A DNA stretch of 64,000 bases from Candidatus Gottesmanbacteria bacterium RIFCSPHIGHO2_01_FULL_40_15 (GCA_001779115.1 MFJF01000015.1:22491-86490); one strand, 5' to 3'. Shown: positions 8,351 through 64,000, counted from the first letter of the stretch. Program-made: numbers and translations. The notes: generated by a model from the letters alone, not told the origin.

Positions 8351-8359
8351 GATATTTGA

Positions 8360-9526: not shown

Positions 9527-9586
9527 ACTTCTTATATTCGGTAATTTCTTTTATAATGCCGGTAATTAATCCGGCAAATTCCTTTA

Positions 9587-9988: not shown

Positions 9989-11384
9989 AAAAAGCTTGGT
10001 CTTCTTTATCTTTCTGACATTTTCGGCTCTGACAGCTTTTTATTTATTCCGTAAGTCTTTAAACGGGTTCTTTTTCCAGGATGACTGGTTTTCACTTAAA
10101 ATCAGTTCGGTTAAAAACATTAGGGATGCCTTAAATATATTTGTTCCAAGGTCTGACGTGATTTATTACCGTCCTTTGGGAATGCAGTTGCCCTTTTATC
10201 TCTTAAGCTTGGGCGGTAAGATTAACCCCATCCCGTTTAAGGTACTTATAGCCGTGGTGCATTTTGCCAATATTTGTCTTCTAAGTCTTCTGATTCTGAA
10301 GTTAACCGGAAAAAAATTCAGTTCACTTTTGGTTTCATTTTTCTATTCCACTTCCCTGATTCATTTCACTATTTTTTGGTGGAGCGCCACTTTATCATTT
10401 ATTTTAACAACTTTCTTTTTGCTTATAGCCCTCATTTTATATTTAAAATATTTAACGGAAAAAAAATTTTGGTCTTATTTCTCAACCCTGTTATTTTTTA
10501 CCCTGGCTCTCTTAACCAATGAGATGGCGTTGATTTTTCCGGTGCTAACGCTGTTGCTGCTATGGCTGATTAAAAAAGGAAAGTTCTCATATTTGGGGGT
10601 TGTTCCCTTTATAATTTTACCGGTAATACTTTTTTCAGCCCGATTTCTGTATTTTCCGCCGCCGATATCCGGGGATTACCGGCTGGTTATCGACAGGGGA
10701 CTGATTATTAATCTGAGGGATTACTTCCTCTGGAGTTTTAATTGGCCAGAAGAAATGAAAGGACAATTCGTTAAATTTTTTGCAGTCAATCCTCTTTTTA
10801 TCAGCGGTTTTAAACCTTATTTTTTGGCATTTGTTGTAACACTTTTTATTAATTTGTCTTTCCTTTTTTTAATTCCCTTTCTTTATCTTCTGATTTCCGG
10901 GAATTTAATACCCTTCCGGATGATTATATTCGGAGCTGGTTTATTTCTGGCGGGTTTATTGCCGGTTATACTTTTCGGCCGGCACACTTTTTCCTATTAT
11001 CTGACTCTTTCCCTGATCGGACTGCTTCTTATAACCTCCTCTCTGATTGAAGAGTTTTTCGCAAGTTTCGAAGGCAAATACAGACTTTTGGTTTTCTTTT
11101 ATTTGCTGGTAATTCTAACCAATTGGCTCTATTCGTCATTTATGGGCTTCGAGTTCAACATGAAAGTCCATTGGGCTCCCCGCCGATCGGATATTTCGCA
11201 AAAACTTATTTCTCATGCCGGAGGATTAAAACCGGCTGCCGGGCAAACAGTAATTATTTCGGTAAATAATAATCCTGAAGTGAAACTGGCTTTAAACAAT
11301 CAGGACGCGTTCCAAGTTTTGTTCGGCAGAAACGATATCATTACTGTTTATTCAGATAAAATCGAGGCCGATTTCAGATTATGA
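9983..11384 (+). CDS. polytopic integral membrane protein of unknown function, possibly GT-C-like
   Basis: 467 aa and at least 11 hydrophobic segments. ATGAATAAA start overlaps the cupin stop. I recognised no family. The ORF track start of 9882 is rejected because of the overlap. Confidence 0.45.
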
Positions 11385-12529
11385 AGAAAACTATTGTAGT
11401 ACTAGCAATTGTTATTACTTCGCTGCATTTAATAAATTTCTGGCATATAAATCTGGAAAGGTTAAAAAGACCCTTTGATCCGGATTACTTTTCCGGACTT
11501 TATTCAACTTCCCAATATGTTTTGGGAGAAAAATCAAAAGGAGGTATCGGTGATGACGGACTTTATGCTTTTGCCGGCTATTATTACTTTTTCCAACAGG
11601 GAGATGTCAGTGCGGTAAACTTTGAACACCCGCCTTTGGGGAAATATCTAATTGGACTTTCAATTTTTCTTTTTAACAACGAAATTATAATCGGAATTAT
11701 ATATTTTATTTTTCTTCTTATCACGGTTTATAAATTAAGCGGTTTACTGATAAGTGATAAATATCTTTCCCTTCTTCCCCCGATTCTGATTTCATGGGAT
11801 CCGCTCTTTCTCGATCACACAATAAGATCCCAGCTTGACCTTCCCTTCTCGTTGTTTTTCGTCACGGCTGTTTATTTTTTTCTTCTGATTTTTAAAAATA
11901 ATACCGGTATATATCTTTCCCAATTATTTTGGGCCTTGGCGTTTAGCGTCCGTTTTTTCCCGTTTCTTATTATTTTGGAAATTTATATGGCAATTATTAC
12001 ATTTTTTGTCGGCCGCAGGTTTTTACTCCGGTTTCTTCTGTCGTCACTTTTAACTCCGGTTATATACCTTGTAACCCATACCGTTTTTTTTATTTACCAT
12101 CCGTCACTGGTGGAATTTCTCAGGCATAAAAAATGGATGCTCGCCTGGTTTACCGGAACTCCGGTTAAATTCGGCAATATCTTAAGAAACATTTTTACCG
12201 GAAGGCTTCTTGATACGCTTGATAATTCGGTTGTCAATAACCTGTGGACTCCGATGCAGCCGGTAATTTTAGTTTTGGCACTGCTTTGTCCGTGTCAATT
12301 TCATCGGCGGAATAATTCAATTAGCGTAAAATTTTCCCCGTATTTTGTTCTATTAGGTTTTGTAATCTTATATTTCCTTTATACCGTAATTTTAACCGGC
12401 GGCCAGGCGAAATTTATCATGCCTGTATTTCCGCTGATGGCGGTTCTGGCGGTAAAGAATGCGGCAGATCTCTATAGTATAATACTGCCATGGATCAGGG
12501 CGCGCTTGAGGCATTCAAAAACAAAGTAG
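11381..12529 (+). CDS. short PMT-like (GT39-type) GT-C mannosyltransferase homologue
   Basis: The loop after TM1 reads DDGLYAFAGYYYFFQQGDVSAVNFEHPPLGKYLIGL, which resembles the PMT loop-1 DE...HPPLGKLL signature. Many TM segments, 382 aa, no MIR domain. Confidence 0.55.
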   Translation: MKKTIVVLAIVITSLHLINFWHINLERLKRPFDPDYFSGLYSTSQYVLGEKSKGGIGDDGLYAFAGYYYFFQQGDVSAVNFEHPPLGKYLIGLSIFLFNNEIIIGIIYFIFLLITVYKLSGLLISDKYLSLLPPILISWDPLFLDHTIRSQLDLPFSLFFVTAVYFFLLIFKNNTGIYLSQLFWALAFSVRFFPFLIILEIYMAIITFFVGRRFLLRFLLSSLLTPVIYLVTHTVFFIYHPSLVEFLRHKKWMLAWFTGTPVKFGNILRNIFTGRLLDTLDNSVVNNLWTPMQPVILVLALLCPCQFHRRNNSISVKFSPYFVLLGFVILYFLYTVILTGGQAKFIMPVFPLMAVLAVKNAADLYSIILPWIRARLRHSKTK

Positions 12530-13935
12530 TCGGCGGCGTTTTGGCCTTAACTACACGGACTTTCATCCTCCAGATAATATCATTTACTGCTACTTTTATT
12601 CTGACCATATTGCTGTCTCCTGAAATATTCGGGATTTTTTTTGTTGTTTCAGCCGTAATTTCCTTTCTTACCTATTTTTCCGATATCGGACTGGCAGCGG
12701 CTCTTATACAGAAAAAGGATGAGCCTGTCAGAAGCGAACTGGTGTCCGTTTTTACTTTACAGCAGGTGATAGTAACCCTAGTAGTCGCAGTCTCTTTTTT
12801 AAATGTTTCGCTAATTTCCCGTTTTTATAAATTATCCGGGGATGGTACTTTTCTTTTCCAGGCTCTTTTAGTTTCTTTTTTTCTTTCTTCTTTAAAGACC
12901 ATACCCTCAATTCTTCTGGAACGTAAACTGGATTTTTCCCTTTTGGTAGTCCCTCAGATTCTTGAAAATCTGGCTTTTTACCTAACGGCCGTAATTCTGG
13001 CGCTTTTGAATTTGGGTATTGCCAGTTTCGCCTGGGCAGCTTTGATCAGAGGCATTGTCGGTTTGATTGCCATTTATTCAGTTTCTCCATGGGTTCCGGG
13101 TCTTGGTTTTTCCTATTCCTCGGTGAGACACCTGATTACTTTTGGAATTCCTTTCCAGGCTAATTCTCTTCTGGCACTCGTTAAGGATGATCTTCTTACA
13201 TTATATTTGGGCAAAATACTGCCTTTTTCCTTTATCGGCTATCTTGGCTGGGCAAAAAAATGGGCTGAAATTCCTCTCAGGCTTATTATGGACAGTGCCG
13301 TCAGGGTCACTTTCCCGGCCTTTTCAAGAATCCAAAAAGAAACCGCCTTATTGAAAAAAGCCATTGACAAAACCGTATTTTTTCTGGCGCTTTTGATTCT
13401 GCCGGTATCGGTTCTTTTGATTGTCTATATTAAACCGGCCATCGGAATAATTCCTAAATATCAGAAATGGGAGCCGGCTTTACCGGCTTTTTATCTTTTT
13501 TCACTTTCTGCTGTCCTGGCGTCCTTTTCCAGTCCGATTGTTAACGCGCTTAATGCTTTGGGGAAAATTAGAAAAACCTTAGGTCTGATGTTACTCTGGA
13601 CTGTAATGACCTGGATGCTGGTACCGGTTCTGACAAATCTTATCGGCTATAACGGTTGGCCGATTTCAGCCCTTCTTATTTCCTCCACTCTATTCCTGCC
13701 TGTGTCAATGTTAAAAAAGTATGTCAGTTTTGATTTTTGGAAAAATCTGAAAACCCCCCTGGTCTTAACTTTGGTAATGTTCCTGTTTTCGTTTATGACA
13801 ATGTCTTTTGTATATAATATTTATACTCTGGTTGCTTTAATTTCTGCCTCCCTCCTTTTATACTTGCTTTTATGTTTTTATTTTCTTAAAAAAGACATCT
13901 TGCCTTTTCTTCCGGAGTTTCTAAAACGTGTTTGA
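12490..13935 (+). CDS. Wzx-like polysaccharide/oligosaccharide flippase (MOP/PST family)
   Basis: 481 aa with about 12-14 TM segments. The N-terminus (KNKVVGGVLALTTRTFILQIISFTATFILTILLSPEIFGIFFVVSAV) is typical of PST-family flippases. Confidence 0.7.
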   Translation: MDQGALEAFKNKVVGGVLALTTRTFILQIISFTATFILTILLSPEIFGIFFVVSAVISFLTYFSDIGLAAALIQKKDEPVRSELVSVFTLQQVIVTLVVAVSFLNVSLISRFYKLSGDGTFLFQALLVSFFLSSLKTIPSILLERKLDFSLLVVPQILENLAFYLTAVILALLNLGIASFAWAALIRGIVGLIAIYSVSPWVPGLGFSYSSVRHLITFGIPFQANSLLALVKDDLLTLYLGKILPFSFIGYLGWAKKWAEIPLRLIMDSAVRVTFPAFSRIQKETALLKKAIDKTVFFLALLILPVSVLLIVYIKPAIGIIPKYQKWEPALPAFYLFSLSAVLASFSSPIVNALNALGKIRKTLGLMLLWTVMTWMLVPVLTNLIGYNGWPISALLISSTLFLPVSMLKKYVSFDFWKNLKTPLVLTLVMFLFSFMTMSFVYNIYTLVALISASLLLYLLLCFYFLKKDILPFLPEFLKRV

Positions 13936-51471: not shown

Positions 51472-52398
51472 TTGAAAAAAATTTTGGTTACGGGACTGTC
51501 CGGGTTTATCGGAACCCGGTTGTCAGAATTATTTCACCGATATTCATTAATCGGAGTAAGCCGGTCAGTTTCCCGAAATGGAAGGATTCCGGCCAGGAAT
51601 ATGATTAAAGCTGATATTACCGATGAAAAAGAGTTAAGTAAAAAAATAAACAATATTGAGTTTGACGGGATAATTCATTTGGCAGGGATAACTCATATAG
51701 ACAGGTGTGAAGAGGATAAAATTAACGGAAAAAACGGCCTTGCTTGGAAAGTTAATGTCACCGGGACGGAAAACATTATCAGGGCATGCAGCCAAAGCGG
51801 CAAATTCCTTCTATTTCTGTCAACAGAATGTGTCTTTGACGGAAAAAAAGGTTTTTATAAGGAGTCAGACACGCCCTCTCCGGTTAACTGGTACGGCCGG
51901 ACAAAATATGAAGCTGAAAAGAAGATTTTGAGCAGTAAAATTAATGCCTGCATATTAAGATCGGTATTGGTTTACGGTCATTCAAAGGGTTATAAAGTTG
52001 ATTTGGCTAAAAAATTTTTCGAATTGCTAAAATCAGGCAAAAAAATATCAGCAGTCAATGATCAATTTGTGACTTTTACTTTTATTGATGACCTGATTGG
52101 TGCAATTAATCTGGCTTGGGACAAGAAACTTACCGGCATATATCATTTTGCGGCAGAGACCTCTTTATCACCTTTTGAATTTGCCCGGACTATTTCTTCG
52201 GGATTTGGTTTAAATAATAAAATGATAAAACAAACAACTCTTGAGAAATTTTTCGGTAAATCACACCGCTTGCGGTTGGTCAATTCCAGTTTGAATTCGG
52301 ATAAATTCAGGGAATTTTCCCGTACCAGGGCTAAAAATTTGGAAGATGTTGTACCCATACTTGTCAAAAGATGGGGTAAACCGGGAAATATAAAGTAA
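51472..52398 (+). CDS. RmlD-like dTDP-4-dehydrorhamnose reductase family SDR
   Basis: ILVTGLSGFIGTRL, STECVFDGKKGFYKESDTPSPVNWYGRTKYEAE (the RmlD substrate-binding-domain signature). TTG start. Confidence 0.6.
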   Translation: MKKILVTGLSGFIGTRLSELFHRYSLIGVSRSVSRNGRIPARNMIKADITDEKELSKKINNIEFDGIIHLAGITHIDRCEEDKINGKNGLAWKVNVTGTENIIRACSQSGKFLLFLSTECVFDGKKGFYKESDTPSPVNWYGRTKYEAEKKILSSKINACILRSVLVYGHSKGYKVDLAKKFFELLKSGKKISAVNDQFVTFTFIDDLIGAINLAWDKKLTGIYHFAAETSLSPFEFARTISSGFGLNNKMIKQTTLEKFFGKSHRLRLVNSSLNSDKFREFSRTRAKNLEDVVPILVKRWGKPGNIK

Positions 52399-53573
52399 TG
52401 GAAATTCTTTTTGTCATATCATATTTTTTTCCTGCCTGGGCTTATGGCGGACCCGGAAAACTGGTCAGGGAATTAGCCCGGACATTATCAGATCGGGGTT
52501 TCCGGCTGGCGATTTATTCGACTGATGCTTTCGATCTGAAAAGGAGAAGGAAAGAGATTGACAATAAACTTTTAAAAAAGGAAAAATATAAGATTTATTT
52601 TTTCAGAACAATAAATAACCGCTTCAGCTATTACAGTAAATTTTTCCTGTCTCCCGGCCTTGTTTTGACTGCCGCAGCTGAAATCGGAAAATTTGATCTG
52701 GTACACCTGCATGAATTTTTTACCGGAAATGTTGCTATTATTACTTTCCTGGCGGTATTATTTAAAATTCCTTATATAATTTCCGCTCACGGAACTCTTG
52801 ATAGTTACCGCATCAAACACCGCAATTTCGGCAAAAAAATTTTTATGATTTTTTTCGGAAAAAGAATCATTAAAAATTCAGCCGGATTTGTCGCTGCAAC
52901 AGTTGAAGAAACGGAAGAATATAAGCTTTTGGGTGTTCCGGCTGCTAAAATTCATCACATTCCCAACGGAATTGATCTTAAAGAATTCGATAATATGCCC
53001 GGAAAAAACATATTTAAAAAGAAGCACAATATATCCGCCGGGGAAAAAGTGCTTTTATATTTGGGGAGAATACATAAATTAAAAGGTTTAAGACATTTAG
53101 TTGAGGCAATGCCGCTAATCAGCAGTCAAATAGACTGCCGCTTAGTGGTTGCCGGCAGCGATGACGGCTACCAGGAGGAACTTATAAAACTTGTAAAAAA
53201 AAATAAAATCAGTAATGTGGTATTCCCCGGGTTAATCCAGGGGAAGGAAAAATTACAGTTATACAGGGACAGTGATGTTTTTGTTTATCCTTCCTTATCC
53301 GAGGGATTTTCTTTGGCAGTCCTGGAAGCTGCTGCCGCCGGTTTACCGCTGGTGATTACATACGGCTGCAAATTTCCCCAAGTGGCAGAGTATAATGCCG
53401 GTTATATTGTCAGTGCCAAAGCCGAATCTTTAGCCTCGGCAGTGATTAAGATATTAAAAGATGAAAAAAAAAGAAAATCTATGGGTCGCTCGGCCGGAAA
53501 AATGATTAAAAATGATTATTCGATAACAGTAATGGCAAAAAGGCTGGCCGGACTGTATAAAAATATTTCCTGA
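52398..53573 (+). CDS. GT4 (GT-B) glycosyltransferase
   Basis: PSLSEGFSLAVLEAAAAGLPLVIT is a GT4 motif. Confidence 0.7.
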   Translation: MEILFVISYFFPAWAYGGPGKLVRELARTLSDRGFRLAIYSTDAFDLKRRRKEIDNKLLKKEKYKIYFFRTINNRFSYYSKFFLSPGLVLTAAAEIGKFDLVHLHEFFTGNVAIITFLAVLFKIPYIISAHGTLDSYRIKHRNFGKKIFMIFFGKRIIKNSAGFVAATVEETEEYKLLGVPAAKIHHIPNGIDLKEFDNMPGKNIFKKKHNISAGEKVLLYLGRIHKLKGLRHLVEAMPLISSQIDCRLVVAGSDDGYQEELIKLVKKNKISNVVFPGLIQGKEKLQLYRDSDVFVYPSLSEGFSLAVLEAAAAGLPLVITYGCKFPQVAEYNAGYIVSAKAESLASAVIKILKDEKKRKSMGRSAGKMIKNDYSITVMAKRLAGLYKNIS

Positions 53574-53575
53574 AA

Positions 53576-54292
53576 ATGGTTAAATTATCCAAATTATTTT
53601 ACGAAAGTACATATAAAACCGGCTATACATTTAAACAACCTAAGGGAATCAGTGGATTAATATTCAAATTATTCCGGAGATTTGAGGAATACCGTGAGGA
53701 TGCAGTCTGTAATATGCTGCCCGGCGGTGGGCGGTTATTGGATATAGGCTGCGGTGACGGTAATCTGGTATTTAAATCACTAGATTATTACTCGGAAATT
53801 TATGGAATGGACATCGCCGGAACAAGATTGAAAGTCGCCAGAAAGAAAAGGAACGGACTTAAACCAAGAGACCGGAAAAAAATAAAGTTCGTTTTAGCAG
53901 ATGCCGATCAGCCTTTTCCCTTTAAAAATTCATTTTTTAACGCGGTAACACTGGTGGCCACCCTTGAGCATTTTTTTGATCCGTACTTTATTTTAGGGGA
54001 AACTAAAAGAGTATTAAAAACAGGCGGCCGGATAATAATTGAAGTTCCCAATTTGGGATATCTGCCCAGACGTCTTTGTGTATTAACCGGAAATTTACCG
54101 GTAACCAGCGAGGATGAAGCCGGTTGGGACGGAGGTCATTTGCATTATTTCACTTTTAAGACTTTAAAAGAATTATTGAAAGTTGTAGGATTTACTGCCG
54201 AAGAGGAAACTTGCTCTGGGATATTTGCCGGGTTAAGGAGATGGTGGCTGCCTCTTTTGGCAGCGGATATAATCATAAGTGCTAAAAAATAA
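53576..54292 (+). CDS. class I SAM-dependent methyltransferase
   Basis: LLDIGCGDGNLV (motif I), 238 aa. Confidence 0.7.
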   Translation: MVKLSKLFYESTYKTGYTFKQPKGISGLIFKLFRRFEEYREDAVCNMLPGGGRLLDIGCGDGNLVFKSLDYYSEIYGMDIAGTRLKVARKKRNGLKPRDRKKIKFVLADADQPFPFKNSFFNAVTLVATLEHFFDPYFILGETKRVLKTGGRIIIEVPNLGYLPRRLCVLTGNLPVTSEDEAGWDGGHLHYFTFKTLKELLKVVGFTAEEETCSGIFAGLRRWWLPLLAADIIISAKK

Positions 54293-54301
54293 AATAAATA
54301 T

Positions 54302-56254
54302 ATGTGCGGAATAGCCGGAATATATTATTTTAACGGGAAAAAAGCGGATAAAAAAATCTTAGACCGGATGATTCAGGCTTTAATTCACCGGGGACCAGAC
54401 GATCAGGGTAACAAATTGCACGGCAATGTCGGTATTGCCAATTGCAGACTGGCGATTATTGACCTATCCAAACGCGGCCGGCAGCCGATGACTGACTCTA
54501 CCGGAAATGTCAGCATTACTTATAACGGTGAAATTTTCAATTATCAGAAGTTAAGGGAAAAACTTCTCAGGTCAGGCTACCGCTTTAAATCGGAAACAGA
54601 TACGGAGGTTATCTTAAACGGTTATCTTAAATGGGGAGAGGGGATTGTTTCCAAATTAATCGGTCAATTCGCTTTTTGTATTTGGGATAAAAATACAAAC
54701 AGTTTACTGTTAGCCAGGGATCAACTGGGTATAAATCCGCTGTATTATATTCAAAAGGGAAATTTTTTTTTATTCGCTTCCGAAATTAAAGCTTTAATTG
54801 CCTCAGGTCTTATAAATCGGGAAATTAATCCCCAGGCAATTCATCATTTCCTGTCTGTATTTCATATACCGCAACCCATGACAATTTTTCAGGATATAAA
54901 ATCACTTTTGCCGGGCCATTATCTTAAGGTTTCCGGAAACGGACTGAAATCAACCTGTTTTTGGCAAATACCTCTGGGCGGTTGGAAAAATAACCGGCTG
55001 TCAAAAAATGAAATAAAAGAAAAACTTAGATATCAGCTTATTTCTGCGGTTGATGCTGCCAGCGTATCAGATGTACCGGTATCCGCATTTTTATCAGGAG
55101 GAATTGATTCATCAGCCGTAGTTTCTTTATTAGCTCAAAAAAGTTCATATCCGATAAAAACGTTCTGCCTTTACTATCAGGGTGACAGCTATTTTGATGA
55201 AAGACATTTTGCCAGGATTGTATCCCGGATGTATTCAACCGAACATAATGAAATAACTGTCAGTAATACGGAAATTAAAAATGAGTTACCCAAAATAATT
55301 TATTTTTATGACCAGCCTACCGGCGGATCTTTTGAAACATACTTTATTACGAAAGCTGCCGGTAAATCGACAAAAGTTGCCTTATCTGGACTGGGAGGGG
55401 ATGAACTTTTTGCCGGATATCACTCGCTGATTTATAAATGGAAATTTTTGTCTTCTCTGTACCGTAAAATACCCGGTCCATGGCTCAATTTCATTCATCA
55501 TTCTTTGGAAAGGTTACCCCTTAAAGCTGATCTGAAGCATACAATCACAACCGCCGATAAATTTTTAAGGCTTAGTAATCCGGTAAAACAGCGCTTATTT
55601 TATTATTTTGTATTTAATGAGGCTGAAAAAAAGAAAATGTATTCGGCTGAATATCTTTCAAATAAGGACAATTATGAAACTGAAAAGTATTTCACTGATC
55701 TTGCGGATTATGTCAAGGAGTATTCCGCTGTCAGCCAGCTTTATTATATGGATTTGACAAGTTATACGCGTGACGACCTTCTATTAGGCATGAACATGAT
55801 GAGCATGTGTAATTCTCTCGAAGTCAGAGTCCCCCTTTTAAATCCGGAACTGGTTTCTTTTGCCGACAGTATTCCGCCGCATTTAAAATACCAAAACGGT
55901 ATCTCAAAATACATATTTAAAGAAGTAGTCCGGGAATGGCTGCCGGAGGAAGTAATATACAGGAAGAAAAAAGGATTCGGTTTACCGAGGTCCAAAATAA
56001 TGAAACAAGGTTTAAAAAAATACATTTATAATTGTTTGAATTCTGGCATTTTTATTAAGAGAGGATATTTTAATCCTTCCTATATCCGTTCTCTTACTGA
56101 TACGTTTTTCCGTGATAATTCAAAAAGACACCTCTGGAGCCAGGATCTGCAGATTTGGATTCTCTTTATTTTTGAATTATGGTGCCGTCTCTATCTGGAC
56201 CGGAAAGAAGTTACAGTTCCTTCAATAACACTCTCAGATTTAGTAGATCTATGA
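54302..56254 (+). CDS. asnB: asparagine synthetase (glutamine-hydrolysing)-like amidotransferase
   Basis: MCGIAGIY N-terminal nucleophile, and a SGGIDSS PP-loop. 650 aa. Confidence 0.85.
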   Translation: MCGIAGIYYFNGKKADKKILDRMIQALIHRGPDDQGNKLHGNVGIANCRLAIIDLSKRGRQPMTDSTGNVSITYNGEIFNYQKLREKLLRSGYRFKSETDTEVILNGYLKWGEGIVSKLIGQFAFCIWDKNTNSLLLARDQLGINPLYYIQKGNFFLFASEIKALIASGLINREINPQAIHHFLSVFHIPQPMTIFQDIKSLLPGHYLKVSGNGLKSTCFWQIPLGGWKNNRLSKNEIKEKLRYQLISAVDAASVSDVPVSAFLSGGIDSSAVVSLLAQKSSYPIKTFCLYYQGDSYFDERHFARIVSRMYSTEHNEITVSNTEIKNELPKIIYFYDQPTGGSFETYFITKAAGKSTKVALSGLGGDELFAGYHSLIYKWKFLSSLYRKIPGPWLNFIHHSLERLPLKADLKHTITTADKFLRLSNPVKQRLFYYFVFNEAEKKKMYSAEYLSNKDNYETEKYFTDLADYVKEYSAVSQLYYMDLTSYTRDDLLLGMNMMSMCNSLEVRVPLLNPELVSFADSIPPHLKYQNGISKYIFKEVVREWLPEEVIYRKKKGFGLPRSKIMKQGLKKYIYNCLNSGIFIKRGYFNPSYIRSLTDTFFRDNSKRHLWSQDLQIWILFIFELWCRLYLDRKEVTVPSITLSDLVDL

Positions 56255-57411
56255 GAATAATTCATCTGATAGATTATTTCCAGCCGAAACTGGGCTACCA
56301 GGAAACTTACCTTGCCTTAGCGCATTTAAGATTGGGACACCATGTTACCGTAATAACATCTGATCGCCACTATCCGTTTTCCGATTATGCTTCAGCTTTC
56401 CAGAAGATATTGGGAGAAAGAAAGAAAAAACCGGGCAAATTTAAAGAATATGGCCTGGATACATTAAGACTTGCGGCAATTGAAATGCCTTTCACTCCGG
56501 TGATATTTCTTCGTAATTTAAAGACTGCCTTAGCGCATTTAAATCCTGATATGGTTTTTTGTCATGGGATATTTTCAGTTGTGTCATTTCAGGCAGCCCT
56601 TTATAAGGAACAATTTTCATACAAATTGTTTTATGACAGTCACGCCGCTGATTTTAATACGGATTTTGAAAATTCATTATTAAAAAAATTCTATTATTTA
56701 CTGTACATCAAACTGATGGCACCCGTTATCAAAAAAGCCGCCGATAGATTATTCGCAGTAGGGGAGGCGGAAAAGAAGTTTCTTCTGCGTTTTCTTAAAA
56801 TTCCCAATTATCGGGTTGAAATATTAAGAGTTGGCATTGATCCTGTTTTTTTGAAAGCTAAAAAAGAGAAGCGGATGGAAATACGCAGAAAATTGGGCAT
56901 TTCGCCTGATGAATTTGCCATTATTTACACCGGCAAAATCGCTCCGGGGAAAGATTTGCCTGTATTACTCCGGGCGGTTAAATTGCTTGAAGGATTGCCC
57001 GTAAAAATTCTGATTATTGGCGGAGGTAACGTACATTATATCGAAAAATTAAAAAAGCAATATCCTTTTCGGGAAAAAGTTATTTGGACCGGTTTTATTA
57101 CCAATAAAATGTTAACAAAGTATTATAGTGCTGCTGACACGGCAATCTGGCCCGGTAATCCGTCAGTAGCTGTTCTTGAAGCTATGGCCGCCGGATTACC
57201 GGTCATTATTTCCCGTTGGTTTGGTACCCGGTATTTGAATAAAAACAAAACAGTTTTGTCATTTCCCCGGGGAAATCATATAAAATTAGCTAATTTAATT
57301 AAAATATTATCAATTAATAGCCAATTTAGACAAAAATTGGGAATAAAAGCCCAATTATTCATAAAAAATGAATTATCTTGGGATAAAATCGCAAAACAAG
57401 CTATAATTTAG
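56251..57411 (+). CDS. GT4 (GT-B) glycosyltransferase
   Basis: VAVLEAMAAGLPVIISR is a GT4 motif. ATGA overlap with asnB. The ORF-track start at 56179 is rejected. Confidence 0.7.
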   Translation: MRIIHLIDYFQPKLGYQETYLALAHLRLGHHVTVITSDRHYPFSDYASAFQKILGERKKKPGKFKEYGLDTLRLAAIEMPFTPVIFLRNLKTALAHLNPDMVFCHGIFSVVSFQAALYKEQFSYKLFYDSHAADFNTDFENSLLKKFYYLLYIKLMAPVIKKAADRLFAVGEAEKKFLLRFLKIPNYRVEILRVGIDPVFLKAKKEKRMEIRRKLGISPDEFAIIYTGKIAPGKDLPVLLRAVKLLEGLPVKILIIGGGNVHYIEKLKKQYPFREKVIWTGFITNKMLTKYYSAADTAIWPGNPSVAVLEAMAAGLPVIISRWFGTRYLNKNKTVLSFPRGNHIKLANLIKILSINSQFRQKLGIKAQLFIKNELSWDKIAKQAII

Positions 57412-57428
57412 TATATTTACCATTAAAA

Positions 57429-57457
57429 TTGACTTCATATGAAATTTTTATTATCAT
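57429..57457 (+). promoter_or_regulatory. candidate sigma70-like promoter TTGACT-N17-TATCAT
   Basis: TTGACT at 57429-57434 and TATCAT at 57452-57457, in the 96-nt AT-rich gap before ATG 57508. Confidence 0.35.
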
Positions 57458-57507
57458 TTTCTGCAATTATTTGTATATTTTTCTTCTTTTAATACTTTTA
57501 TGTCTTT

Positions 57508-58524
57508 ATGATTAAGATTGGTGTCATCGGCAGCGGTTATTGGGGTAAACATCACTTGAGAATATTTTCACAATTACCTTGTGAGCTTATCGGAGTAGCT
57601 GATATCAATCCGGAACATGCAAAATTGGCAGAATATTTTAAAATTCCTTTTTATAAAGATTACAGAAAATTACTTAAAAAGGCGGACGCGGTAACTGTTG
57701 TCACACCTCCGGCTACCCATTACGAAATCGCCAAAACCGCACTTTTAAGGAAAAAACATGTATTGCTGGAAAAACCTTTTGTCTTAAAACTTTCTCAAGC
57801 TCAAAGACTGTACAAATTAGCGGAAAAAAATAAAGTTCATCTCATGGCCGGTCATACTTTTCTTTATAATCCGGCAGTCAGATTAATCAGGCGGATGTTA
57901 ACTGAAAATAAATTAGGTAGGATTTATTACCTGACAATGGAATGGATGAATCTGGGAATAATCAGAAGTGATGTAAACGCCTTATGGAATTTCGCTCCTC
58001 ACCCTTTTTCCATCCTGAATTATCTTTTTGAAAAATTACCGGTAAAAGTTTCTTTCAGCGGACTGTCATTTATTCAGAATGGTATTGAAGATTTTGTATC
58101 AGGCAGTCTCTTTTATGAAAATGGAATTGTTGCGCACCTGGTTTTGTCCTGGCTTCATCCGGTAAAAATCAGGCAGATTACTTTGGTTGGCAGTAAAAAA
58201 CTAGTCAGATTTGACGATGTTAATAATGAGTCACCGGTTGAAATTTTTGATAAAGGCATCACCCCTGAAGAATTCTTAAAATACCAATCCTGGGATAATT
58301 TTGCCGAGTTTAAGGCCAAAAAACGATACGGCCTGCTGGAAATTCCGGAGGTGGATAAAATTGAGCCTCTCAAAGAAGAACTGAGGGAATTTATCAATGT
58401 TTCTGAAGGAAAAGTTAAATTGCTTTCAGATCAATTCACTGCAGTTAGTACAATTGCTTTGTTGGAAGCTGCCCAAAAATCAATGATGAAGAAAGGAAAA
58501 ATAATAAGTGTCTCCGGACATTAA
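57508..58524 (+). CDS. Gfo/Idh/MocA-family NAD(P)-dependent oxidoreductase (sugar dehydrogenase, WbpB-like)
   Basis: IKIGVIGSGYWGKHHL...LLEKPF is the Gfo/Idh/MocA N-terminal signature. Confidence 0.7.
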   Translation: MIKIGVIGSGYWGKHHLRIFSQLPCELIGVADINPEHAKLAEYFKIPFYKDYRKLLKKADAVTVVTPPATHYEIAKTALLRKKHVLLEKPFVLKLSQAQRLYKLAEKNKVHLMAGHTFLYNPAVRLIRRMLTENKLGRIYYLTMEWMNLGIIRSDVNALWNFAPHPFSILNYLFEKLPVKVSFSGLSFIQNGIEDFVSGSLFYENGIVAHLVLSWLHPVKIRQITLVGSKKLVRFDDVNNESPVEIFDKGITPEEFLKYQSWDNFAEFKAKKRYGLLEIPEVDKIEPLKEELREFINVSEGKVKLLSDQFTAVSTIALLEAAQKSMMKKGKIISVSGH

Positions 58525-59482
58525 TATTCTTTTAACCGGTGCCGGTACCCAGACTTTTGCCAATGTAATTAATCCGTTAAAGGATTATTATCGCAATAGA
58601 GTCAAATTGGTTGCCTGTGACATGGATCCGATGGCTTACGGATTATATTTAGCCGATAAATCTTATATTATTCCTCCGGCAGTAAATAGTAATTTTATCA
58701 AAAGAATTGTTGAAATTTGCCGGTTGGAATCGGTTAAAATTATTCTGCCGTTATTGTCGCTGGATATGCTTCCCATATCAAAACACAAAAAAGAGTTTGC
58801 CGATATGGGAGTATCTGCGCCAATTTCCGATTATAAATCGATTAAGATCTGTTCGGATAAAAAATTAACTTATGATTTTTTCCGCCATCACAATATACCG
58901 ACTCCGGCAACTTACCTTCCCGATGAGTTACCCGGGAAATTAGATTTTCCGGTAATTGTTAAACCTCGTCATCTAAGCGGAAGCAAATTTTTTCAAAAAG
59001 TAAACTCCAGAGATGAACTTCCGAAAATAACCGGTTGTGTACCCGATCCGATTATCCAATCTTTTTTGAACGGCCAGGAATATACCGTTGATATTTTGGC
59101 TGATCTGGAAAGCCGTCCTGTCGGAATAGTACCGAGAAGCCGATTGAAAATATCGGCTGGAAAATCAGTGGTGGGTAAAACTGAAGATTTGCCGGTTTTA
59201 AGAAAATTAATTGAATATGTAATTAAAAAAATTCCCCTTATCGGACCCGCCAATATTCAATGCTTTAAAATTAACGGCAATTTTTTGTTCACCGAAGTGA
59301 ATCCCAGATTTTCGGCAGGCGGACTGCCGTTATCTGTTTCCGCCGGAATGAATTCACCGGTACAGCTGGTAAAAATAGCATTGGGCCAAACCGTTCCAAA
59401 ATTAACAAAAAATTACAATAATCTATATCTGTTCAGATATTATACCGAAGTGATTGTTACGGAGAAAAAAATAATCAAATGA
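58508..59482 (+). CDS. ATP-grasp domain protein
   Basis: VIVKPRHLSGSKFFQKV...QEYTVDIL...FTEVNPRF is an ATP-grasp fold signature. GTG start. Confidence 0.65.
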   Translation: MSPDINILLTGAGTQTFANVINPLKDYYRNRVKLVACDMDPMAYGLYLADKSYIIPPAVNSNFIKRIVEICRLESVKIILPLLSLDMLPISKHKKEFADMGVSAPISDYKSIKICSDKKLTYDFFRHHNIPTPATYLPDELPGKLDFPVIVKPRHLSGSKFFQKVNSRDELPKITGCVPDPIIQSFLNGQEYTVDILADLESRPVGIVPRSRLKISAGKSVVGKTEDLPVLRKLIEYVIKKIPLIGPANIQCFKINGNFLFTEVNPRFSAGGLPLSVSAGMNSPVQLVKIALGQTVPKLTKNYNNLYLFRYYTEVIVTEKKIIK

Positions 59483-60489
59483 CCAGACCGTTTTCCGGAT
59501 TGAAAATACTTGTTACCGGCGGAGCCGGTTTTATCGGTTCGCATATTGTTGATTCTTTGGTTTCCCAAGGAGCAAAAGTAACGGTTTTGGATAATTTTTC
59601 ATTCGGACGCATCGATAATTTAAGCACAGTCAGAAGTAAAATTAAAATTATTAAAGCCGATATCAGGGATTATGGCAAACTGGTAAAAGCCATGGAGGGG
59701 ATCGATATGGTTTCACATCATGCCGCACAATTGGAAATAATCAGGGCAAATAATGATCCCTGGATCGATCTTCAAATCAATTTGCTCGGTACCATAAATG
59801 TTTTAAAAGCAAGCCGCATCAAGCGCGTTAAAAAAATTATTAACGCTTCTTCAGCTTGTGTCTATGGTCAGCCTAAATATAAAAAGCAGGATGAAAATCA
59901 CCCTGTAGAGCCGAATTGGGAATATGGGATATCAAAACTCGCTGCTGAAAAGTATTGCCGCATATTTACAACGTCGTTTGGCATTCCCTCGGTCTCTCTC
60001 CGATACTCAATCGTATATGGCCCACGGGAATGGTACCGGCGTGTTCTGACGATTTTTATCAAAAGAACCATACAGGGAAAGCCTCTTGTTGTGTTTGGCG
60101 ACGGTAAATTATACCGTGATTATGTATACGTGGCAGATGTGGTCAAGGCCCACAACTTATGCCTGATTAAAAAAGCGGCAGACGGAGAAGTTATTAATAT
60201 CGGATCAGGAAATTTAATTACCATTTTGAAATTAGCAAGACTGGTAAATATTGTATCAGGAAAACAATTGCCGATTATCCATGAGCAGGTTTCTGAAGGA
60301 GGGGAAAGCCGGCAAGTTCCCGGTAAGAAAAGAAATCCTCAGGATTTAAAAGGAATGTGCCTGGACAACAAAAAAGCTAAAAAATTATTGGATTGGCAAT
60401 CGGAAGTCACTTTGCCGGACGGAATTCATTTTGAATTGGATTGGGCAATGAAAAATCTCGACCAGTGGCGTAAAATTAAATACTCTTAA
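59479..60489 (+). CDS. NAD-dependent epimerase/dehydratase (SDR)
   Basis: ILVTGGAGFIGSHIVD, YGISKLAAE (YxxxK). Confidence 0.7.
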   Translation: MTRPFSGLKILVTGGAGFIGSHIVDSLVSQGAKVTVLDNFSFGRIDNLSTVRSKIKIIKADIRDYGKLVKAMEGIDMVSHHAAQLEIIRANNDPWIDLQINLLGTINVLKASRIKRVKKIINASSACVYGQPKYKKQDENHPVEPNWEYGISKLAAEKYCRIFTTSFGIPSVSLRYSIVYGPREWYRRVLTIFIKRTIQGKPLVVFGDGKLYRDYVYVADVVKAHNLCLIKKAADGEVINIGSGNLITILKLARLVNIVSGKQLPIIHEQVSEGGESRQVPGKKRNPQDLKGMCLDNKKAKKLLDWQSEVTLPDGIHFELDWAMKNLDQWRKIKYS

Positions 60490-61193
60490 TGATTTTGAAA
60501 CTTGACCGGATTGCCGGAAAATATTCCGAAGAAAAAGGATTTGAAAAGGTTATAACTTCATACAAAATCCGGGAAATTATTAAGTTTATCAAAGGCCCTG
60601 ATGTGCTTGATTTGGGATGCGGTGAAGGCATAATCACCCGGGCAATCGCTTCGCTGAATTTTCATGTGGTTGCCGTAGACGGTTCGAAACTCAAACTTCA
60701 AAAAGCCAAAAAGAATATTTCAAATAATAATGTAAAATTTATCCATTCTTTTTTTGAAAATTTTGATCCGCCGGTAAAATTCAATTCCATTGTTATGAGC
60801 AACATTCTGGAACATGTCAATAAGCCCGATAAATTACTGACCCGGGCTAAGTCGTGGCTCAAGCATGACGGCAGAATCATTGCCACAGTCCCTAATGCCG
60901 ATAGTTTAAACAGGTTGTTGGGTTTAAAAATGGGAGTAATTTCCGGTAAAAAGGAATTGACTGCTGAAGATAAACATAAAGGTCATCGGCGGGTTTATGA
61001 TATGAAATCATTGAAAACTGATTTTAAAAGCGCCGGTTTTAAGGTCAAATTTATGGGAGGTATTTTTCTTAAACCGTTACCCCATAAATATATGGAAAAA
61101 ATAGGCGATGAAAATATTTATGAAGGACTTTATAAACTTCGTCTGGAATACCCGAACTTATGTTCTTCGTTAATCGCGGTTGCTTTAAAATGA
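60489..61193 (+). CDS. class I SAM-dependent methyltransferase
   Basis: VLDLGCGEGIIT motif I. TAATG overlap. Confidence 0.7.
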   Translation: MILKLDRIAGKYSEEKGFEKVITSYKIREIIKFIKGPDVLDLGCGEGIITRAIASLNFHVVAVDGSKLKLQKAKKNISNNNVKFIHSFFENFDPPVKFNSIVMSNILEHVNKPDKLLTRAKSWLKHDGRIIATVPNADSLNRLLGLKMGVISGKKELTAEDKHKGHRRVYDMKSLKTDFKSAGFKVKFMGGIFLKPLPHKYMEKIGDENIYEGLYKLRLEYPNLCSSLIAVALK

Positions 61194-61753
61194 ACCGGGT
61201 AAAAGCTGTTTTTTTTGATTTTGACGGTACTATTTTTACATTGAAAATGGATTGGTTAAATCTGAAAAACAATATTATTTCCGAATTCGGCCTTAAAATT
61301 TCTGCAGAATCAAATTTTATGAATAATATATACGATCTGAAAAATGACAAAAAAAAGTCGCAGATTTTAGCCAGGATCACCTTTGAAGAATTGAAAGGAG
61401 TTGAAAACGGGAAACCTGATCACGGTTCTATAGATTTTATAAATTTCTGCCGTAAAAAAAAATATAAATTAGGTGTTGTTTCCAGAAACAGCCGTAAAGC
61501 CATATTATCCGGCTTGGGTAAAATGCGGCTGTCTGAAATACCGGTAATTGGCAGGGAAGATGTTCGAAAACTGAAACCTCATCCGGAAGGATTAATTAAA
61601 ATGATGAGTATGCTTTCAGTATATCGGAATGAGTGTATTTATATCGGTAATGATGCGGTTTCGGACAGGCGGTTTGCTGAAAATGCGAAAGTTAAATTCA
61701 TCCACCTGAAGAGCTGGAATGAAATTAAAATCAACTGCAGATCGTGGAACTGA
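61190..61753 (+). CDS. HAD-superfamily hydrolase or phosphatase
   Basis: VFFDFDGTIF (DxDGT motif I), 187 aa. ATGA overlap. Confidence 0.65.
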   Translation: MNRVKAVFFDFDGTIFTLKMDWLNLKNNIISEFGLKISAESNFMNNIYDLKNDKKKSQILARITFEELKGVENGKPDHGSIDFINFCRKKKYKLGVVSRNSRKAILSGLGKMRLSEIPVIGREDVRKLKPHPEGLIKMMSMLSVYRNECIYIGNDAVSDRRFAENAKVKFIHLKSWNEIKINCRSWN

Positions 61754-64000
61754 TCCTGACTATATTAATACCGGTTGTTTTATCGCTTTCAGGTTTACCG
61801 TTCCTTTTGAAAAACAGGTATTTCCGGGAATTCCCGGGTATTCTTCTGTTGGCAATTTCCGTCCAATTAGGCCTATCCCTTGTGATATTTCCGATGGTAA
61901 TTTGGGGTTTAATTTTTGCATCGGGATTTGTTGTGATTGCCAGAATAATTTTCATATTATCTATCCTTCTTTCCGCAATTGGTCTTTATACATTCCTGCG
62001 GAATAAAAAATTTTCCATAAATCTAAAAGAAACGATTAAACTTGTTAAAAATCCTGTTATTGCCGTAACTTTTATATTCTTATTTATCTACTTCTTATTG
62101 TTTGCGTTAAAACCCGTAATTGACTCGGATATAATCAGCAGTTATCTGCCGCTGGGCAGAAGTATCATCAGATCTGACAGTATTCCCCGGCTTAATTATT
62201 ATGATAATAAACCGTTTGTTATACCCCCCGTTGCCGGTCCTGTTTTATTCTCATTTTATTATGCACTTTCAAAAAATATAACCGGTGAAATTTTCCGGTA
62301 TATAAACCTGCCGTTTTTCTTTTCATTCCTGATTTTTTCTTATTATATATTCAGAAAATTTCTGAACAAATCATATTCTTTATTGGCTCTGGTAGTACTT
62401 TTAACAACACCCCTGTTGGAAGATCTTATTTTCAGTGCCGGTCTGTACCCGGATTTCATTTTTGCCTCACTGTGCCTTTTTTCCTTTTGGCTCATGTACT
62501 CTCTGGCAAATACTCCAAAAGCGACAGGACAAAATAGAATATCATTTTTTATCTGTATGTTGATGGGAATTTCAATTGCGCTGGCTATGCTTTTTAAATA
62601 TCAGGCAATTGTACTTTACGTCATTGCTGCCGCTTTTATATTGTCTCAGAATTTAACCGGTTTGTTGAGAAGTCTGGTTTACCTTCTGGATTTATCACCC
62701 CTCTTTTTAATGGAGTATTTCTCAATTAATCCTTATAATAAATTCCCGTTATTTGTTGAATTGGTATTTATCCTGCTGATTACAGTCGCCCTTTTTTTAC
62801 TTCATAAAAACATTAAACCTTTTAAAAAAAGTAATTTATTGAACTTGTACATTTTTTTTATTTTCAGCCTTCCGGGTTTTATTTTTATTGTCAGAAATTT
62901 TTTGGTATTTAATGGTCTTAATGAAACCTCATTAATCTATAACTGGGCTGTAAGTATGGAAAAAACAGTCGGAGAAGAAATTGAACAGGGAAATCTGTAT
63001 TCAATTTTTTCAATCTTTTTAGCGCCCGCTTTATCGGCCTACTGGTTAATTCCGAAAATAACCGGATTATTCATTATGATAAAAAAGAACCGGAAGCATT
63101 TTCTCAATTTGTTTATTATATTTACCTGGACAGGCTATTGGGTTATTGGAATGAGTGCGGTTACTGTCAGATGGTTAATGCCGATTCTGCCTTTTCTGGT
63201 CTTAAGTATAATGGTTGGACTTAAACATTTTTTTAAAAAAATAAATTATTTTACTCAAATAATTTTTACGGGCATTCTTTTTATGATACTTTCATCCAAA
63301 TTCATATTTATTAATTTGGGATCATTGCTTTCAGGGACTGAGAATTTGCGTCAAATAGCCGGGCAGCAGCAAAGCGGCAGCTCCGTTATAAGAAACGGTA
63401 TTGATGGATTTTTAAAAACAATTATTTTTACCCTGACCGCCCGTACTGAATCGGAAAAAGATATATTACAGTTGTTAATCTTGTCTGTTATTTTTTTTAT
63501 TCTGATAAAAAAAATTGCAGATCTATTTGGTTCTGCCAAATCATTAAAAGTCATTTTATTAACAGTTTTTATCATTTACGGCAGTGTGTTTATGTGGGTG
63601 TCAAACGGCAATTTACTGAATTTTACAGAACGTGAAGCTGATCTTGTATTTGACTATTGGGGTCAACAGAGGTATTTGATTCCATATTTGAAAAATCATT
63701 CGGAAAAAGATGATATAGTCTTATCCTACAATATACAAACCGGACTTTCATATTATACCAACATGCGGGTTTTTAATTTGCAGTATGGTGCCGGATTACA
63801 AATCTTTTATCCGATTTTCAATGAAACCGATCCGGAAAAAATCCACCTGTTTTATAAAAAAAACGGATTTAGGTATTTTGTTCTCCTGGATTATCAGGAA
63901 TCGAAAAAACATTGGACCAACTTAAGAAAAAAAACAAAAATTTTTGATATTCTCGATGATAAGCGTTACAGTACTCTTGTACTTAGTCCCAATAATAAAT
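61744..64000 (+). CDS. polytopic membrane protein of more than 750 aa, possibly another GT-C-like enzyme. 3' end is beyond the window. Not in the ORF track.
   Basis: I hand-translated frame 1 from the TAA at 61726-61728 to nt 64000 and found no stop. The product is a hydrophobic multi-TM protein. The likely start is GTG 61744, overlapping the HAD stop. Confidence 0.6.
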   Translation, partial: MELILTILIPVVLSLSGLPFLLKNRYFREFPGILLLAISVQLGLSLVIFPMVIWGLIFASGFVVIARIIFILSILLSAIGLYTFLRNKKFSINLKETIKLVKNPVIAVTFIFLFIYFLLFALKPVIDSDIISSYLPLGRSIIRSDSIPRLNYYDNKPFVIPPVAGPVLFSFYYALSKNITGEIFRYINLPFFFSFLIFSYYIFRKFLNKSYSLLALVVLLTTPLLEDLIFSAGLYPDFIFASLCLFSFWLMYSLANTPKATGQNRISFFICMLMGISIALAMLFKYQAIVLYVIAAAFILSQNLTGLLRSLVYLLDLSPLFLMEYFSINPYNKFPLFVELVFILLITVALFLLHKNIKPFKKSNLLNLYIFFIFSLPGFIFIVRNFLVFNGLNETSLIYNWAVSMEKTVGEEIEQGNLYSIFSIFLAPALSAYWLIPKITGLFIMIKKNRKHFLNLFIIFTWTGYWVIGMSAVTVRWLMPILPFLVLSIMVGLKHFFKKINYFTQIIFTGILFMILSSKFIFINLGSLLSGTENLRQIAGQQQSGSSVIRNGIDGFLKTIIFTLTARTESEKDILQLLILSVIFFILIKKIADLFGSAKSLKVILLTVFIIYGSVFMWVSNGNLLNFTEREADLVFDYWGQQRYLIPYLKNHSEKDDIVLSYNIQTGLSYYTNMRVFNLQYGAGLQIFYPIFNETDPEKIHLFYKKNGFRYFVLLDYQESKKHWTNLRKKTKIFDILDDKRYSTLVLSPNNK

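Follow-up and report, generated by a model that had tools for sequence, protein, structure and literature searches.

A stretch of 64,000 nucleotides from a groundwater genome of Candidatus Gottesmanbacteria (hereafter the window, meaning the whole stretch) carries, between positions 53576 and 61753, genes for an AsnB-like amidotransferase, a Gfo/Idh/MocA dehydrogenase, an ATP-grasp ligase, two S-adenosylmethionine (SAM) methyltransferases, a short-chain dehydrogenase/reductase (SDR) and a HAD phosphatase, and it raises the question of which sugar such a set of enzymes would modify and by what chemistry. An initial annotation, made from the sequence alone, had read these genes as one sub-cluster for the amidation and decoration of a sugar acid. 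All seven gene types were indeed found in Pfam and NCBIfam scans of the window open reading frames (ORFs), on which the domain identities given here are based, together with a family 4 glycosyltransferase (GT4) at 56251-57411 that had not been listed; the unit also runs on past 61753. To our knowledge, nucleotide-linked amino sugars are N-acylated by acyl-CoA-dependent transferases in every well-studied pathway. Here we propose, with a probability of roughly 55%, that the genes from the Gfo/Idh/MocA dehydrogenase onward (unit B) form a nucleotide-sugar tailoring cassette that would N-acylate a 3-amino sugar by means of the ATP-grasp ligase and the phosphatase, and that AsnB belongs to a separate unit (unit A).

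Organisation of the locus

The surface-glycan setting assumed in the initial annotation was borne out by Pfam scans, in which the whole window appeared as a single very large glycan locus with many GT2, GT4 and GT-C genes. The locus exceeds 74 kb (window 1-64000 plus L001:13237-20975); the 74 kb examined here are the 64-kb window and 10 kb downstream, the latter taken from metagenome contig L001. All ORFs from 49.5 kb to the window end lie on the + strand. The gene string at 53576-61753 is present in near-identical form on many independent metagenome contigs, and is therefore not an assembly artefact. NCBI records assign the window proteins to Candidatus Gottesmanbacteria, a lineage of the Candidate Phyla Radiation (CPR), and annotate them as 'hypothetical' or in generic terms.

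The flagged stretch did not hold together as a single coherent sub-cluster. It consists of two units split by a 97-nt gap, and AsnB sits in a GT4-AsnB-GT4 unit that is conserved in CPR bacteria and occurs without the cassette. Unit A, as delimited from the sequence, is 51484-57411; the split between the units is drawn there because gene junctions, the AT-rich gap and comparative gene contexts agree. The gap (57412-57507) is the sole sizeable one among the genes considered here, the other checked junctions being overlaps or gaps of a few bases. Within unit B, each gene from Gfo onward shares 1-17 nt with its neighbour (overlaps of the ATGA and TAATG types), and judged by these junctions unit B is a translationally coupled cassette. 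A promoter and terminator scan of 48-64 kb did no better than on shuffled sequence; promoter-like hexamers do occur in the gap, at a frequency not exceeding the shuffled expectation. The genes of unit B and its continuation are as follows.

57412-57507, no strand: intergenic gap between units A and B, 97 nt, AT-rich, directly upstream of Gfo
57508..58524, + strand: Gfo/Idh/MocA oxidoreductase (PF01408, E = 5e-29)
58508..59482, + strand: ATP-grasp ligase (PylC-like_N, ATP-grasp_3, ATPgrasp_Ter)
59479..60489, + strand: GalE-like extended SDR (Epimerase, E = 7e-58)
60489..61193, + strand: SAM methyltransferase MT2 (Methyltransf_23, E = 4e-21)
61190..61753, + strand: HAD-IA phosphatase (HAD_2, E = 1e-18)
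61744..64000 and on to about 64035 (about 35 nt past the window end), + strand: PMT_2/GT-C membrane protein, 763 aa (PMT_2, weak; L001:13237-15528)
64016-65137 in window-equivalent positions (L001:15509-16630), just past the window end: DegT aminotransferase of the cassette

The start of HAD was placed at 61190, and not at 61160, by independent metagenome gene calls. The PMT_2/GT-C protein is inserted between HAD and the DegT gene; beyond the window end, the gene calls on L001-L006 give the order PMT_2/GT-C, DegT, DUF2142, another PMT_2, another DegT and a flippase.

Predicted functions of the unit B proteins

The best NCBIfam match of Gfo was NF040723, the archaeal UDP-GlcNAc 3-dehydrogenase (E = 5.5e-45; 154 bits, under the cut-off of 450). 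Among PDB entries it matched GnnA (7bvj, 4e-20) and, much more weakly, 3q2k (8e-11), which we take to be the uronic-acid enzyme WlbA. Gfo is probably a UDP-GlcNAc 3-dehydrogenase that supplies a 3-keto sugar. The cassette DegT matched C3 aminotransferases best, namely QdtB (1e-102, 347 bits), DesV (2e-99) and WbpE (8e-85), and is by similarity of the C3-aminotransferase type.

UDP-hexose 4-epimerases were the best PDB matches of SDR (4zrm, 3.5e-47). The protein carries the motifs SSACVYG (of the SSAxVYG type) and YxxxK, which we take to mark the epimerase type, the Asp-Glu pair of dehydratases being absent, and it is probably a nucleotide-sugar C4 epimerase. Its assignment as a 4,6-dehydratase or a UDP-GlcA decarboxylase was considered and rejected on motif and best-match grounds. 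MT2 is UbiG-like (2e-18, below cut-off), with the hypothetical protein 2p7h as its nearest structure, and the weak matches of HAD were phosphoglycolate-phosphatase-like proteins; for neither was a characterised close relative found in family or structure searches.

At E <= 0.01 the ATP-grasp protein matched only PylC-like_N, ATP-grasp_3, ATPgrasp_Ter, ATP-grasp_4 and Dala_Dala_lig_C in the Pfam scan, with no match to ATPgrasp_TupA. It falls in the 'carbamoyl-phosphate-synthase-like' group of PRK12767 and PDB 2pn1, matching 2pn1 at 1e-36, or at 1e-63 with a family profile. The profile next found the carbamoyl-phosphate synthetase large subunit (2e-30), biotin carboxylases (4e-17), L-amino-acid ligase and PylC. 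The AlphaFold2 model of the protein (predicted local distance difference test score, pLDDT, 95) again retrieved 2pn1 first in a fold search (Foldseek 1.6e-25, template modelling (TM) score 0.81), followed by generic ATP-grasp enzymes. Thus 2pn1, a structural genomics entry from Exiguobacterium, is the best sequence, profile and fold match, and the protein lies outside the curated equivalogs, under the cut-offs of NF009402-NF009406 (257 of 390 bits for NF009405, 183 of 218 for NF009402). No assignment of function was found in the literature on ATP-grasp proteins in capsule, flagellin, O-antigen, amino-sugar, dTDP, glyceroyl and archaeal N-glycan contexts.

Conservation of the unit B cassette

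We collected 73 genome loci with relatives of the ATP-grasp protein, using a profile built from 12 sequences, as well as several metagenome contexts, and clustered the neighbouring ORFs; the neighbourhood statistics below refer to 76 loci including that of the window. With small rearrangements, a second CPR locus repeats the string Gfo - ATP-grasp - SDR - HAD - MT - DegT, its proteins being orthologous to those of the window cassette. It was also found in metagenome-assembled genomes (MAGs) labelled Pseudomonadales, Bacteroidota, cyanobacteria, Zixibacteria, Bacteriovoracaceae and Humidesulfovibrio, and parts of it in two methanogen loci. Identities to the window proteins are 50-66% for SDR, 44-51% for DegT, 28-46% for MT2, 32-42% for Gfo and 30-52% for ATP-grasp, the wider ranges of cassette orthologues being 39-66% for SDR and 37-51% for DegT genes next to ATP-grasp homologues. 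Orthologues of Gfo (32-42% identity) adjoin ATP-grasp in 13 loci, and those of DegT do so in 16 of the 24 related loci outside Nitrososphaeraceae.

Methanolinea, Salinibacter ruber and Methanocaldococcus bathoardescens JH146 carry the 3,4-ketoisomerase FdtA in place of Gfo, with RmlA/RmlB upstream in Salinibacter and Methanocaldococcus. ATP-grasp, methyltransferase, HAD and DegT gene types are present in all three of these cassettes, and SDR in those of Methanolinea and Salinibacter only. In the latter two, for which alone identities were measured, ATP-grasp is 31-34% and SDR 39-45% identical to the window proteins; DegT is 41% identical in Methanolinea (the Salinibacter contig ends before DegT) and MT2 34% in Salinibacter. 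For Methanocaldococcus the string of gene types matched by Pfam. Gfo and FdtA thus appear to be alternative suppliers of a 3-keto nucleotide sugar to one aminotransferase. The cassette is widespread, with carriers among CPR bacteria, Bacteroidota, Pseudomonadales, Salinibacter and methanogens, and apparently uncharacterised.

Direction of the ATP-grasp reaction

The initial annotation had the ATP-grasp enzyme join an amino acid or amine to a sugar carboxylate. This is hard to reconcile with the orthologous cassettes, which use the 3-amino-3,6-dideoxy sugars of the FdtA pathways. Such a hexose has no C6 carboxylate, and it would therefore be the 3-amino group, and not a sugar carboxylate, that the ATP-grasp enzyme acylates. 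An amine-exposing enzyme, either DegT or a PIG-L de-N-acetylase, lies within 8 kb of ATP-grasp in 36 of the 44 loci where the latter is at least 30% identical to the window protein, PIG-L being the one found in nonulosonic-acid and Nitrososphaeraceae contexts. Despite its four DegT-family genes, the 74 kb examined yielded no Hexapep or GNAT N-acetyltransferase among the family matches. The ATP-grasp enzyme most likely joins an acid to a sugar amine, the reverse of the polarity proposed initially.

Linkage of a phosphatase and proposed acid donor

Removal of a phosphate by HAD had also been suggested, and here the comparison of loci agreed, since HAD and ATP-grasp stay close together across genomes and are fused in one protein. 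In 17 of 76 loci HAD is found no more than three genes away from ATP-grasp (in the window it is the third gene downstream). About 22 loci of Nitrososphaeraceae instead have a PHP phosphoesterase, of a fold unrelated to HAD, within 1-2 genes of ATP-grasp. Taken together, a phosphatase of either kind is near ATP-grasp in 35 of 44 loci at >=30% identity as compared to 4 of 31 below 30%, and the distant homologues (<28% identity) lack both. The fusion, P0093 (535 aa, on a 2.8-kb metagenome contig), joins ATP-grasp (residues 1-300) to HAD (325-502) naturally. Campylobacter jejuni offers a biochemical precedent: serinol phosphate or ethanolamine phosphate is attached to glucuronate by the ATP-grasp domain of Cj1438, after which Cj1435 takes the phosphate off (PMC11800379). 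From the adjacency, the fusion and this precedent we infer a phosphorylated acid as the donor of the ATP-grasp enzyme.

Phosphoglycerate, which would yield an N-glyceroyl group, is our leading candidate, by analogy and as a conjecture. It is attractive because glyceroyl groups, in one case O-methylated, occur on known glycans; the cassette has a methyltransferase. N-glyceroyl is found on the 2,3-diaminoglucuronamide of the Methanoculleus marisnigri N-glycan (PMC11407970) and on Tannerella pseudaminic acid (PMC5378307), and di-O-methylglyceroyl on Campylobacter pseudaminic acid (PMC3068675); no gene had been assigned to the N-glyceroyl substituent, and that gene was called 'elusive' in 2018 (PMC6120980). 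The top 120 matches to the Methanolinea ATP-grasp protein included no Methanoculleus homologue, and we therefore draw no link to the known N-glyceroyl-diaminoglucuronamide glycan.

The same polarity evidence would serve equally well if an unphosphorylated amino acid or small acid were placed on the 3-amine, with HAD either supplying that acid (serine from phosphoserine, glycolate from phosphoglycolate) or being unrelated. The phosphoglycolate-phosphatase-like matches of HAD fit such a role. Structural neighbours of the ATP-grasp protein include PylC and L-amino-acid ligases, and some of its sub-families are accompanied by a class-III aminotransferase, or by a second ATP-grasp but no phosphatase, which suggests amino-acid or dipeptide donors in those loci. 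However, the phosphatase-free loci are the distant ones, below 28% identity, and a phosphatase that tracks ATP-grasp through two unrelated folds and one fusion fits a shared intermediate better than precursor supply. We therefore consider an unphosphorylated donor unlikely.

Uronic acid and carbamate as less likely products

The product first envisaged was an amidated 2,3-diamino uronic acid, in which AsnB would amidate C6 in the manner of WbpS, the ATP-grasp enzyme would join an amine phosphate or an amino acid to the sugar carboxylate, and HAD would dephosphorylate the result. Part of that scheme is retained here: WbpB-like 3-amination is plausible, given a Gfo that resembles 3-dehydrogenases and is paired with a C3 aminotransferase, and an AsnB-family amidotransferase is present in the glycan locus. 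The pairing of an ATP-grasp with a HAD follows exactly the logic of Cj1438C/Cj1435 (PMC11800379), 2,3-diaminoglucuronamide does occur in nature (PMC11407970), and in Tannerella asnB adjoins wecB/wecC, the glycan bearing a ManNAc uronamide (PMC6120980). The uronic acid itself was not supported. A tblastn search of the window, the following 10 kb and the bacterial cassette loci with E. coli Ugd and WecC (E <= 1e-3) found no homologue, and therefore nothing local would make a uronic acid; the 74 kb hold neither such a dehydrogenase nor an N-acetyltransferase. Moreover, the orthologous FdtA cassettes use 6-deoxy sugars, on which a C6 carboxylate is impossible, Cj1438C is TupA-like whereas the window ATP-grasp is not, Gfo resembles UDP-GlcNAc enzymes more closely than it does 3q2k, and AsnB travels with GT4 genes without the cassette. 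On balance this product is distinctly improbable.

It is very unlikely that the ATP-grasp enzyme uses bicarbonate, like carbamoyl-phosphate synthetase, biotin carboxylase or PurK, to N-carboxylate the amine, the carbamate then being methylated to a methyl carbamate or amidated by AsnB to a ureido group. The order of profile matches after 2pn1 and the nearby methyltransferase and amidotransferase would suit such chemistry. Yet it leaves the tightly linked phosphatase without a role, similarity to the biotin carboxylase fold is generic among ATP-grasp enzymes, and such a glycan substituent was not found in the literature searched.

Proposed pathway

The domain identities, the arrangement as an operon and the recurring gene partners are observed; for N-acylation of a 3-amino sugar by unit B, we infer the chemical steps, the acid and the order of the steps as follows. 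UDP-GlcNAc would be oxidised at C3 by the Gfo/Idh/MocA enzyme, and the 3-keto sugar converted to a 3-amine by the DegT encoded just past the window end. The ATP-grasp enzyme, in place of the usual acetyl-CoA-dependent N-acetyltransferase of the WbpD/FdtC type, would then activate a carboxylic acid as an acyl phosphate and couple it to the 3-amine. HAD would remove the phosphate of the acid, leaving N-glyceroyl if phosphoglycerate, the leading candidate, is the donor. The product would next be methylated by MT2 and epimerised at C4 by the GalE-like SDR, and the GT-C membrane protein together with glycosyltransferases would place the sugar on a surface glycan. In unit A, AsnB, encoded between two GT4 enzymes, may amidate a carboxylate of the growing glycan.

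Several points weigh against this pathway. The search for a characterised member of the ATP-grasp family by PDB sequence, profile and fold returned only the unannotated 2pn1 and generic ATP-grasp enzymes, and the family profile is nearer to carbamoyl-phosphate synthetase than to amino-acid ligases, which leaves room for bicarbonate chemistry. The NCBIfam matches of Gfo, ATP-grasp, SDR, MT2 and HAD are all below curated cut-offs. The epimerase role of SDR is tentative, and the Methanocaldococcus cassette has no SDR. Our choice of acid donor is a guess, as phosphoglycerate, phosphoserine, phosphoenolpyruvate, phosphoglycolate and an ordinary amino acid are indistinguishable by sequence, and HAD might act earlier, freeing the acid ahead of ligation, or have some other substrate altogether. 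The genome might also carry a 6-dehydrogenase gene outside this locus. Finally, AsnB-like genes of three lineages occur near cassettes in other phyla, and a link of AsnB to the cassette product is possible.

A broader proposal, which we offer tentatively and would not ourselves favour over its negation, is that ATP-grasp and phosphatase, together with the methyltransferase, provide a general and so far uncharacterised route for placing a phosphorylated hydroxy acid on sugar amines, be they UDP-GlcNAc3N, dTDP-3-amino-3,6-dideoxyhexoses or nonulosonic-acid precursors. This could be how the N-glyceroyl and O-methylglyceroyl groups of archaeal N-glycans, Tannerella pseudaminic acid and Campylobacter flagellin sugars arise, for which a route has been missing.

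Comparison with known systems

Like the window, the WbpB-WbpE-WbpD pathway of P. aeruginosa, WlbA-C of Bordetella, GnnA-GnnB and NF040723 pair a Gfo/Idh/MocA dehydrogenase with a C3-type DegT. Unlike the WbpB-WbpE-WbpD and WlbA-C pathways, the window has no N-acetyltransferase (WbpD/WlbB, left-handed beta-helix (LbH) fold), with ATP-grasp, HAD and a methyltransferase found instead, and it has neither the 6-dehydrogenase nor the 2-epimerase of a uronic-acid branch. The dTDP-Fuc3NAc and dTDP-Qui3NAc pathways (FdtA/QdtA, FdtB/QdtB, FdtC/QdtC) are related through DegT, which scores 347 bits to QdtB, and through the orthologous cassettes that use FdtA. The window differs from them in having Gfo, acting on a UDP-GlcNAc-type substrate, and not FdtA, and in an acetyltransferase step that would be replaced by ATP-grasp, HAD and a methyltransferase.

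Cj1438C/Cj1435 of the C. jejuni capsule glucuronamide (PMC11800379) offer a parallel in logic, an amide formed by an ATP-grasp enzyme with a phosphorylated partner and followed by a dedicated phosphatase. Cj1438C, however, is TupA-like and joins a sugar carboxylate to serinol or ethanolamine phosphate, whereas the window protein is of the PylC-like_N/ATPgrasp_Ter kind and would join a sugar amine to a phosphorylated acid.

If the proposal is true, an ATP-grasp ligase with a phosphatase would constitute a new enzymatic route to unusual N-acyl sugars and a testable candidate for the N-glyceroyl gene (PMC6120980), and genes now annotated as 'hypothetical' or 'carbamoyl-phosphate synthase large subunit' would gain functional names. 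Since Salinibacter ruber and Methanocaldococcus bathoardescens JH146 are cultured carriers, the idea is directly testable.

Unit A and AsnB

Unit A begins upstream of the flagged stretch and comprises the following genes.

51484..52398, + strand: RmlD-like SDR (RmlD_sub_bind, E = 4e-49), upstream of the flagged coordinates
52398..53573, + strand: GT4 glycosyltransferase GT4a (Pfam)
53576..54292, + strand: class I SAM methyltransferase MT1 (Methyltransf_11, E = 2e-18)
54302..56254, + strand: AsnB-family glutamine-dependent amidotransferase (Asn_synthase, 3e-78; GATase_7, 1e-43)
56251..57411, + strand: GT4 glycosyltransferase GT4b (Glycos_transf_1, E = 2e-22)

GT4b, flanked by AsnB and Gfo, has a start codon that shares bases with the AsnB stop codon (ATGA). 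Two further CPR loci, L092 (Gottesmanbacteria; 7855-13060) and L093 (Patescibacteria; 7099-13110), carry unit A without the ATP-grasp cassette, in the order carbamoyltransferase - (RmlD-like SDR) - GT4 - AsnB - GT4 - ABC transporter. In both, orthologues of GT4a (35-43% identity) and GT4b (42-45%) directly flank AsnB upstream and downstream, respectively, and in L092 a 43%-identical orthologue of the RmlD-like SDR directly precedes the GT4-AsnB-GT4 set. MT1 has no orthologue in L092 or L093; a 43%-identical one adjoins GT4a in another CPR locus, L008. On this comparison unit A is a separate unit conserved in CPR bacteria. The ABC transporter that follows it in L092 and L093 is Wzm/Wzt.

AsnB begins with MCGI, the Cys after the initiating Met being the catalytic nucleophile, and has the synthetase domain as well. 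Its best NCBIfam match is TIGR03108, the XrtA/PEP-CTERM-associated amidotransferase (481 bits, under the cut-off of 817), and its best PDB match TsnB9 (7ylz, 9e-54). It passes the generic asparagine synthase model TIGR01536 (454 bits, cut-off 267) and falls short of the AsnB equivalog PRK09431 (266 bits, cut-off 499). About 26 homologues at 46-55% identity form its clade, after which identity drops to 38% or less, and the three members with a named source are all CPR bacteria. CPR genomes are small, so that the window copy may be the sole AsnB of its genome; even so, a housekeeping role, with AsnB making asparagine and the ATP-grasp protein a cell-wall or purine ligase merely beside glycan genes, is scarcely credible, since AsnB, for all its pass with TIGR01536 and its catalytic N-terminal Cys, shares just 29% identity with E. 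coli AsnB and always lies, like its CPR orthologues, between two GT4 genes in glycan loci, while the unit B genes overlap one another and the ATP-grasp protein groups with neither D-Ala-D-Ala ligase (26 bits to the Ddl model NF002378, cut-off 243) nor purine enzymes (no significant family match).

AsnB would probably amidate some carboxylate on the nascent glycan. As a glutamine-dependent enzyme encoded among glycosyltransferases, it resembles AsnB-type amidotransferases of glycans, namely WbpS of P. aeruginosa O6 and Tanf_01265 of Tannerella forsythia, as well as TIGR03108. In Tannerella, asnB is part of a glycosylation cluster, and the corresponding glycan bears a uronamide (PMC6120980); in contrast, the window AsnB has no wecB/wecC-type genes nearby and scores below the TIGR03108 cut-off. 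AsnB was also considered as a core member of the cassette and rejected, since the AsnB-like genes near cassettes belong to three lineages and that of the window travels with GT4 genes. The three lineages are 26-30% identical to one another, and those from other phyla are 26-30% identical to the window copy, about as distant as E. coli AsnB.

Other features of the locus and variant ATP-grasp neighbourhoods

Besides four DegT-family genes, the locus has genes for about 12 PMT_2/YfhO-type GT-C membrane proteins, many small GT2 enzymes, an amine-oxidase-like flavoprotein and a transaldolase-like protein. Such a combination of small GT2 and GT-C proteins suggests glycosylation outside the cytoplasm from polyprenyl-phosphate sugars.

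ATP-grasp relatives were also seen in other settings. The Nitrososphaeraceae loci L029, L030, L035, L038, L046 and L064 and about 20 others of this family (ATP-grasp at about 10001 or 4400 in each) encode a PIG-L de-N-acetylase, two ATP-grasp paralogues and a BshC-like Rossmann protein. They further have the PHP phosphoesterase, a GT2 with multiple transmembrane segments and often a WecC-like dehydrogenase; the cluster has the appearance of a pathway, so far uncharacterised, for a GlcN-based metabolite or glycan. In L065-L082, from rumen and gut Firmicutes MAGs, a distant ATP-grasp (22-27%) occurs with FdtA, DegT, a phosphoglycosyl transferase, a second ATP-grasp of 431 aa and an SDR, and no phosphatase was found in these loci, which may specify a dipeptidyl or amino-acyl Fuc3N/Qui3N pathway. 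A variant ATP-grasp - SDR - class-III aminotransferase - DegT - GT2 string is present in L043, L049, L052, L027, L069, L079 and L081, where the class-III aminotransferase may provide an uncommon amino acid as the donor.

An ATP-grasp and HAD pair lies within nonulosonic-acid clusters of the legionaminic/pseudaminic type in L011:6616-17289 (Methylomonas) and L019 (Aenigmatarchaeota), together with NeuB, a CMP-transferase, a NeuC-like epimerase and a PIG-L deacetylase; the Methylomonas cluster adjoins flagellin genes. Two further ATP-grasp homologues, P0111 and P0113 (465 aa), are extended at the N-terminus by some 150 residues that match no Pfam family.

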